Both the position numbers and the translations under genes were made by a program. Positions 49,821-49,898 of a DNA stretch of 64,000 bases are shown in pieces. How positions within the stretch are numbered: position 1 is the stretch's first letter; every line of letters starts with the position of its first letter. Source of the stretch: Escherichia coli (GTDB lineage Bacteria > Pseudomonadota > Gammaproteobacteria > Enterobacterales > Enterobacteriaceae); assembly GCF_003334355.1 (NCBI RefSeq), contig NZ_QOWP01000002.1; one strand, written 5' to 3'. The notes under the pieces were generated by a model. It was given only the letters and a program-made list of their open reading frames with translations. It was not told where the DNA came from and made no database searches.

Positions 49821-49841
49821 GCGGACCTCTCCCTGTTAAAA

Positions 49842-49885
49842 GCCTCACATTATACGGGGTACTACAAAAAAAATGCAGTACCCCG
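49842..49885 (-). promoter_or_regulatory. Candidate menF promoter (perfect -10 TATAAT) overlapping a 9-bp-stem hairpin just downstream of elaB
   Basis: Minus strand reads cggggtact-gcattttttttgt-agtaccccg then TATAAT (complement of 49849-49854), ~30 nt upstream of the menF GTG; GGGAGAGG Shine-Dalgarno. Confidence 0.4.
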
Positions 49886-49898
49886 GTGTAGGGAGGTT

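Follow-up and report, generated by a model that had tools for sequence, protein, structure and literature searches.

The window analysed here is a 64,000-nucleotide (nt) stretch of Escherichia coli DNA (contig NZ_QOWP01000002.1 of assembly GCF_003334355.1). Its minus strand carries, in this order, elaA, elaB, a 78-nt spacer (49821-49898), menF, menD, menH, menB, menC and menE, and the spacer between elaB and menF is the subject of this work. The window is K-12-like and around the spacer it is the same sequence as E. coli K-12 MG1655 (MG1655 coordinate = window coordinate + 2,330,823). The locus was found as a single copy in 5422 of 5426 complete E. coli genomes at an identity of at least 95 %, and a look through the literature for menF together with elaB turned up nothing specific. 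On the gene strand the spacer reads AACCTCCCTACAC-CGGGGTACTGCA-TTTTTTT-TGTAGTACCCCG-TATAAT-GTGAGGCTTTTAAC-AGGGAGAGG-TCCGC-GTG. Taken as a whole, it is probably a compact gene-boundary module in which three functions overlap: formation of the elaB mRNA end, initiation of menF transcription and a predicted fold-back of upstream RNA on the menF ribosome-binding region.

An initial annotation, made from the sequence alone, had described a hairpin lying 14 nt past the elaB stop, with an A8 run in its loop and with TATAAT, a Shine-Dalgarno sequence and the menF start codon behind it, and had proposed that it could couple elaB termination to menF promoter activity or serve as a protein-binding site. 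All of these elements were confirmed where they had been placed. The hairpin starts at the 14th nt past the TAA; its 9-bp arms, cggggtact (49855-49863) and agtaccccg (49877-49885) on the plus strand, flank the A8 run (49866-49873); and on the minus strand TATAAT (49854-49849) follows the hairpin directly and precedes AGGGAGAGG (49834-49826) and the annotated menF GTG. The interpretation attached to them was only partly supported, as described below. The coordinates of the features are collected in Table 1.

Table 1. Features of the elaB-menF boundary (window coordinates; MG1655 coordinates in brackets)
Feature	Position	Strand	Remarks
elaB coding sequence, 101 aa	49899..50204	-	stop TAA 49901-49899; open reading frame list and RefSeq annotation of the identical MG1655 stretch
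GCACGC, last elaB codons	49905..49910	-	predicted pairing with GCGUGC (49822-49817, holds GUG) in E. coli read-through RNA
C-rich box CCUCCCU, candidate anti-Shine-Dalgarno	49890..49896	-	49-55 nt upstream of the menF transcription start; CTCCCT in most genera
Hairpin	49855..49885	-	5' arm 49885-49874, U7 loop 49873-49867, 3' arm 49866-49855
T8 run (A8 on the plus strand)	49866..49873	-	menF promoter position about -32 to -25; makes up the loop and one closing pair
Main steady-state elaB 3' end, ...CCCCGUAUA-3'	49851 (2380674)	-	Term-seq and SMRT-Cappable-seq
-10 hexamer TATAAT of the menF promoter	49849..49854	-	kept across genomes; start mapped 8 nt downstream
GUGAGGCUUUUAA, discriminator and start-site region	49836..49848	-	G-rich segment and U run kept even in distant genera (GGGG-TTTTT after the -10)
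Primary start of menF-menD(-menH) transcripts	49841 (2380664)	-	SMRT-Cappable-seq
menF Shine-Dalgarno AGGGAGAGG	49826..49834	-	5 nt before GUG; GGGAG invariant among the compared genomes
menF coding sequence, 431 aa	48525..49820	-	GTG start 49820-49818; open reading frame list and annotation

In the gene-strand RNA the stem comprises 12 bp with one G.U pair (CGGGGUACUGCA / UGUAGUACCCCG) closed by a U7 loop, with a predicted energy of -21.2 kcal/mol, and the hairpin is nested in a bigger predicted structure (-35.3 kcal/mol for the 90-nt spacer RNA, z = -4.1 in comparison to dinucleotide shuffles). Taken alone a palindrome of this kind is unremarkable, since four perfect 9-bp palindromes with a loop of up to 13 nt occur in the window and about two are expected from block shuffles. 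Three things nevertheless set the hairpin above chance: its place within a spacer of 78 nt, its retention in over 40 enterobacterial genomes and its agreement with a mapped 3' end of RNA. Its arm has one exact copy in 64 kb and near matches at chance level, and a repeat element of the repeated extragenic palindrome type was rejected on this ground. An Rfam scan of 49300-50400 at a permissive threshold gave no match with an E-value below 7, only a chance microRNA match, and a function on the plus strand was rejected, as no gene is convergent and the hairpin read on that strand is not followed by a U tract. Two other perfect 9-bp short-loop palindromes of the window lie at 19272-19297 (CAGGATGGCGCATGAACGCCATCCTG) and 31572-31596 (TGTGCCGGTGCAGTAAACCGGCACA). 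The length of the loop homopolymer is variable within E. coli: strain ECZP248 has T7 in place of T8, which would space the arms as TACTG-N10-TAGTA.

The hairpin defines the steady-state mRNA end of elaB and of elaA-elaB, as shown by published maps. In the Term-seq data of Adams et al. 2021 (Supplementary file 1; PMC7815308) position 2380674 of the minus strand is listed as the 'primary' elaB 3' end, in three entries corresponding to one growth condition each, two of the scores being 54,112 and 221,851. Independently, SMRT-Cappable-seq (Supplementary Data 2 of Yan et al. 2018; PMC6131387) gives the same nucleotide as the end of the elaA-elaB transcript initiated at 2381565. Among 30 reads with this start 10 stopped at 2380674, 16 went at least 50 nt past it and none stopped within the next 50 nt, the median extension past 2380674 being 199 nt (PMC6131387); from these reads roughly 40 % of elaA-elaB transcripts end at the hairpin and about 60 % read through. 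The mapped end lies 4 nt past the stem, within TATAAT, and thus the tie between the hairpin and the end of the elaB transcript, suggested in the initial annotation, was borne out.

The same annotation had also been right in not regarding the hairpin as a canonical terminator. The stem-loop is G+C-rich as in intrinsic terminators, but the loop holds the U run, and the expected U-rich tract of 7-9 nt after the stem is replaced by UAUAAUGUG, with four U in nine nt. A consensus promoter/terminator scan did not call the 12-bp hairpin; its single terminator call, a 5-bp alternative hairpin ACCUC/GGGGU before the U run, was rejected, as it ends 6 nt before the U tract. The possibility was considered that the hairpin is a weak intrinsic terminator, with release within UAUAAUGUG and the 3' end then nibbled to +4, so that neither Rho nor long trimming would be needed. 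The strong stem, the four U residues after it and the bimodal SMRT-Cappable-seq outcome, with 10 reads ending exactly at the site, agree with such an explanation, as do the lack of a reported Rho-dependent region at this site in Adams et al. and the canonical T9 terminator found at the equivalent place in the distant loci L012 and L058. The missing U tract, the silence of the scan and the read-through of about 60 % speak against it. So does the end at +4, shorter than the usual 7-9 nt, which nibbling could account for. Moreover, the same anatomy has been given for Rho-dependent transcripts by Dar and Sorek (PMC6061677). Weak intrinsic termination is therefore kept as a tentative explanation, possible but not the favoured one.

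Instead, a protective role for the hairpin at the end of elaB mRNA is probable. Dar and Sorek 2018 (PMC6061677) described Rho-dependent transcripts that are trimmed back to protective stem-loops without a U tract, their 3' ends falling right after the stem, and a precise steady-state end right after a stable stem without a U tract is what the maps give for elaB. The hairpin would act like other stable stem-loops that halt 3'-to-5' exonucleases on transcripts terminated further downstream, or it may alternatively be a leaky terminator. Several observations do not sit easily with this view. Supplementary file 2 of Adams et al. lists no bicyclomycin-sensitive region at or just after the hairpin (23806xx, 23807xx), possibly because elaB expression was too low in that condition. 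At the 5' end of menF, C exceeds G only mildly (1.35 in 49780-49661), which is not diagnostic, and a Rho-loading (rut) site proposed from this composition was rejected. Against the reading of the module as a whole, some transcripts from the elaA start span the whole of menF (operon of b2267, b2266 and b2265; PMC6131387). Elsewhere in the window, nudI on the plus strand is followed by a perfect 9-bp-stem hairpin (34163-34184, TGACAGCCATTACTGGCTGTCA) without a U tract and without a lower helix, and the Term-seq 3' end of nudI (MG1655 2365011) lies 4 nt past the stem, the same offset as in elaB.

TATAAT, immediately downstream of the hairpin, is the genuine -10 of a menF promoter lacking a -35, as shown by published maps. 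SMRT-Cappable-seq placed the primary (5'-triphosphate) start of the menF-menD and menF-menD-menH transcripts at 2380664 (Yan et al. 2018; PMC6131387), which is 8 nt after TATAAT. The initial annotation had predicted a start near 49842 and had named its absence as evidence against the proposal; the mapped start is 1 nt away. The coupling of elaB termination to the activity of this promoter, also proposed there, found no support. At the distance of 16-18 bp upstream at which a -35 hexamer would be expected there is only TGCATT or CTGCAT, with 2 of 6 matches, and because of the missing -35 no full promoter was found at this spacer in the consensus scan. TATAAT or TATACT was present in more than 40 genomes, including distant ones without the hairpin. 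In L012 and L058 (Cedecea davisae) a canonical terminator is found whose T9 run lies some 15 nt upstream of the -10 and is followed by ACCACGTATAAT, and since distant genera keep the -10 with a canonical terminator instead of the hairpin, the -10 is the older element. These two loci, L017 (Franconibacter pulveris) and L013 (Atlantibacter) keep TATAAT, the G-rich segment and the T run, and the GGGTAC hairpin is absent from them; in L017 a hairpin CCCTGC/GCAGGG surrounds the -10 and is followed by T5.

The men operon may be punctuated again between menF and menD. In the menF-menD spacer (48437-48524) a separate primary start of menD-menH-menB was mapped by SMRT-Cappable-seq at 2379281 (window 48458, minus strand; PMC6131387), and Adams et al. 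(PMC7815308) list a Rho-termination region also at 2379281, with counts of 132/40 in untreated cells and 156/120 with bicyclomycin.

Conservation was followed in an ElaB scan of one genome per species, which gave 80 loci with menF after elaB in about 45 of them, and in metagenomes scanned for a 16-mer of the module, which gave 61 further copies. A fixed order of C-rich box, hairpin, TATAAT (or TATACT), G-rich segment and U run, Shine-Dalgarno and GTG is kept in Escherichia, Salmonella, Citrobacter, Enterobacter, Leclercia, Lelliottia, Kosakonia, Phytobacter, Trabulsiella and others; the stretch from the elaB stop to the box is free to vary. In 29 non-Escherichia genomes the 79-nt module has a mean identity to E. 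coli of 81 %; the corresponding values are 70 % for menF (first 300 nt) and 78 % for elaB. The hairpin has an energy of -12 to -22 kcal/mol in all related genomes except Pluralibacter. Its outer pairs are invariant, the outer arms being fixed in sequence as GGGTAC / GTACCC. The apical pairs and the loop vary with pairing mostly kept (78 % of cells paired versus 29-55 % in slid controls), and the T-rich 5' half of the loop is kept in other genera. In the menF leader of Yokenella regensburgei (about 2870-2895 of locus L063) an extra perfect 9-bp-stem hairpin, GAACCTGCCTCAGGCAGGTTC, is present between the U run and the Shine-Dalgarno, so the module tolerates an insertion at this place.

The hairpin DNA covers about -14 to -44 of the menF promoter, and the palindrome GGGGTACTGC-N-GCAGTACCCC could be a transcription-factor operator, for example for the LuxR-solo SdiA, with the hairpin being secondary. 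The invariance of the outer arms, the position of the site in a promoter without a -35 and a loose likeness to CTG-N10-CAG boxes fit this idea. So does the response of PmenFDHBCE reporters to sdiA, about 2-fold up in Salmonella and 105-fold down, independently of acyl-homoserine lactone, in E. cloacae (PMC11619404), and the palindrome could in principle serve SdiA, for which no consensus is known (PMC12086679). However, the E. coli menF reporter was not regulated by sdiA in the same study (PMC11619404), and no similar palindrome was found upstream of the sdiA-regulated E. coli fepE, the one promoter compared. The spacing is also not that of a fixed operator: the invariant half-arms are 13-15 nt apart among genera and CTG-N-CAG is found with N9 to N11 (N11 in most genomes), and such variable spacing favours an RNA hairpin over a rigid protein operator. 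In addition, the apical stem changes with its pairing retained, the 3' half reads TAG and not CAG in E. coli K-12, and the hairpin coincides exactly with an RNA 3' end. A LexA box was rejected, as TACTG-N11-TAGTA misfits CTG-N10-CAG. The protein-binding site suggested in the initial annotation thus found little support, no known operator pattern fitting the palindrome, and an operator at this position is considered rather improbable.

The third, predicted function concerns a C-rich box, CCUCCCU, located between the elaB stop and the hairpin, which had been missed in the initial annotation together with the outer helices. The box is complementary to AGGGAG, the core of the menF Shine-Dalgarno, and the CGCGUG start region likewise finds a complement in many genomes, namely a CGCA, GCAC or ACACGC motif located further upstream. 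Both the box (49896-49890) and GCACGC (49910-49905) are situated upstream of the menF transcription start, and because this start is downstream of the box and the hairpin, the helix is possible only in RNA that reads through from elaB. Pairing of this arm with the Shine-Dalgarno and/or the start codon in the long RNA is predicted: in most genera the minimum-free-energy fold of read-through RNA has a long-range box:Shine-Dalgarno helix enclosing the hairpin, and, averaged over 35 genomes, the Shine-Dalgarno is unpaired with a probability of 0.27 in read-through RNA versus 0.50 in RNA from the menF promoter. In Silvania confinis the C-rich box upstream of the hairpin is tandemly duplicated (CTCCCTGCCAA CTCCCTGCCAA).

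The box and the Shine-Dalgarno appear to change together. Compensatory box/Shine-Dalgarno pairs are CUUCUCCC/GGGAGAAG in Leclercia, AAUCCCCUCCC/GGGAGGGGAUU in Phytobacter, GAACCUCCC/GGGAGGUUC in Trabulsiella and CUCCCCCG/CGGGGGAG in Pluralibacter, and a further compensatory change is AACC:GGUU versus GACC:GGUC. In the first set of genomes the native duplexes between upstream and downstream segments had an energy of -19.5 kcal/mol versus -17.1 kcal/mol for species-permuted ones, none of 5000 permutations being as low. With one representative of each of 25 downstream classes the values were -20.3 and -17.4 +/- 0.5 kcal/mol, and none of 20,000 permutations reached the native one. In an anchored ungapped alignment 65.3 % of cells were paired versus 61.0 % after shuffling (0 of 500 shuffles as high; slid controls at most 54 %), and 23 cells were changed on both sides versus 14.7 in shuffles (2 of 500 as high); over the three measures of the shuffle test, 0 to 3 of 500 shuffles reached the observed values. 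Anchored alignments and duplex energies were used instead of RNAalifold on a MAFFT alignment, which returned only four invariant pairs with the loop and the Shine-Dalgarno out of register. These results point to pairing that has been kept in evolution, and the complementarity with its co-variation suggests fold-back inhibition of menF translation on read-through RNA. The support from covariation is moderate, since the shuffle and permutation controls ignore shared ancestry.

Some of the findings weaken this interpretation, mainly where E. coli is concerned. In Escherichia the variable spacer has been lost, which brings the elaB stop to within 2 nt of the box. Minimum-free-energy folds of 138-nt and 101-nt read-through RNAs and RNAduplex gave as the best E. 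coli fold a pairing of UUAAAACCUCC (49902-49892) with GGAGGCUUUUAA just past the -10, plus GCACGC:GCGUGC, the segment GUGAGGCUUUUAA (49836-49848) being the favoured partner of UUAAAACCUCC in Escherichia. The box:Shine-Dalgarno register is 6.2 kcal/mol worse in E. coli than the box:GUGAGGCUUUU fold. In the predicted structure the GUG is paired, yet the Shine-Dalgarno is only half occluded (unpaired 0.50 versus 0.76 in RNA from its own promoter), and E. coli's own duplex is not significant versus shuffles (fraction 0.08). Complementarity is also weak in the hairpin-bearing lineages L116 (-9.6 kcal/mol) and L140 (-11.4 kcal/mol). The metagenome contigs L116, L140, L151 and L164 share the Shine-Dalgarno UGGAGGUUU and the box CCGCUCCCUC, with duplexes of -9.6 to -11.4 kcal/mol, and the fold-back may have been lost in this lineage. 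The modelled fold-back is accordingly weaker for E. coli than for other genera such as Salmonella and Enterobacter, and, judged from the sequences overall, the prediction that the upstream box folds back on the menF ribosome-binding region in read-through RNA is given about an even chance.

The proximity of the elaB stop to the box in Escherichia could also have a different meaning. The lower helices might serve translational coupling and not insulation: a ribosome that finishes elaB would open both GCACGC:GCGUGC and the helix of the box, and menF on read-through RNA would be translated only during elaB translation. In Escherichia the stop abuts the box, the 5' strands of both outer helices are within the footprint of the terminating ribosome, and full-length elaA-elaB-menF transcripts do exist. 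In most other genera, however, the box lies 15-40 nt past the stop, out of reach of the ribosome, and the complementarity is still kept there, which argues for a function independent of elaB translation. Coupling is therefore thought unlikely.

Another reading of the compound stem is that of an RNase III site of the phage T7 R1.1 type, with a lower helix, an asymmetric internal loop (CUACA / UAUAAUGU) and the 12-bp upper stem. One cut on the 3' side of the loop would make the 49851 end and split the elaB from the menF RNA. The predicted rod is about 29 bp long in E. coli and the mapped 3' end does fall in the 3' strand of the internal loop. Nevertheless, elaB, menF and these coordinates are absent from the RNase III data examined, supplements of Gordon et al. 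2017 and the main text of Altuvia et al. 2018. The register of the lower helix differs among genera, and the nudI hairpin of the same window has its +4 end with no lower helix at all. This reading is regarded as very improbable.

The fold-back inhibition proposed here would work as follows. In read-through RNA only, the box and the CGCA/GCACGC motif would fold back on the menF Shine-Dalgarno and GUG, and such RNA would be a poor template for menF translation, open to premature termination and to decay. RNA initiated at the menF promoter, being without the 5' arm, would be translated freely. The expected outcome would be insulation of the menaquinone operon from elaB. Untranslated RNA that is ended or degraded early would agree with a read-through extending for a median of about 199 nt into menF, but this is not a proof of it. 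In its complete form, the proposal of a conserved three-in-one insulator, in which only RNA from the menF promoter is translatable and read-through RNA is sequestered and cleared about 200 nt into menF, probably by Rho, is put forward tentatively, its probability being placed a little short of even.

elaB is an RpoS-dependent gene of the stationary phase, and the function of the men operon lies in anaerobic respiration. The boundary between them shows that 78 nt are enough to separate tightly packed genes that share a strand but not their regulation. Should the fold-back arm work, the origin of a transcript would decide whether menF is translated from it, and operon maps that count read-through RNA would overestimate the output of the men operon. 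The module would also be a compact natural part for synthetic biology, in which a hairpin for the mRNA end, a promoter and an insulator of translation are united. Its basic anatomy is nothing unusual, and as the elaB 3' end and the menF start were already in public data sets, the gain in this respect is interpretive. The new part, possibly a new twist on this anatomy, is the conserved C-rich box as a candidate fold-back arm.

The boundary shares features with several known systems. Like a canonical intrinsic terminator it has a G+C-rich hairpin at a gene end, with partial termination or partial 3'-end formation; it differs in the U run, placed inside the loop, in the tail UAUAAUGUG and in a 3' end lying at +4, whereas L012 and L058 do have a canonical terminator. 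With the protective 3' stem-loops of Rho-terminated transcripts (Dar and Sorek) it has in common a stable stem-loop of terminator-like energy, the absence of a U-rich tail and a precise end after the stem. It differs from them in that the elaB hairpin is embedded in the promoter core of the next gene and that no bicyclomycin-sensitive region is listed for it in Adams et al. As in -10-only sigma-70 promoters, menF has a perfect and deeply conserved TATAAT with a start mapped 8 nt downstream, but it lacks a TG extension, and a conserved palindrome and T tract fill the -35 and spacer region.

The closest parallel to the proposed third function is fold-back inhibition, known from the transposase genes of IS10 and IS50 and from phage T4 gene e and I-TevI. 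In the two T4 genes the early read-through RNA hides the ribosome-binding site and the RNA of the late promoter starts inside the hairpin. The elaB-menF boundary differs from these cases in having arms about 55 nt apart that enclose another hairpin and the promoter itself, and in that the register of its predicted pairing in E. coli is unlike that of other genera. Also, the context of menF is a core metabolic operon and not a mobile element or phage. The common feature is a 5' arm placed upstream of the gene's own transcription start, so that only externally initiated RNA can form the structure. If the prediction is true, fold-back inhibition of the IS10/T4 style would act in a core metabolic operon and would be conserved across many enterobacterial genera.

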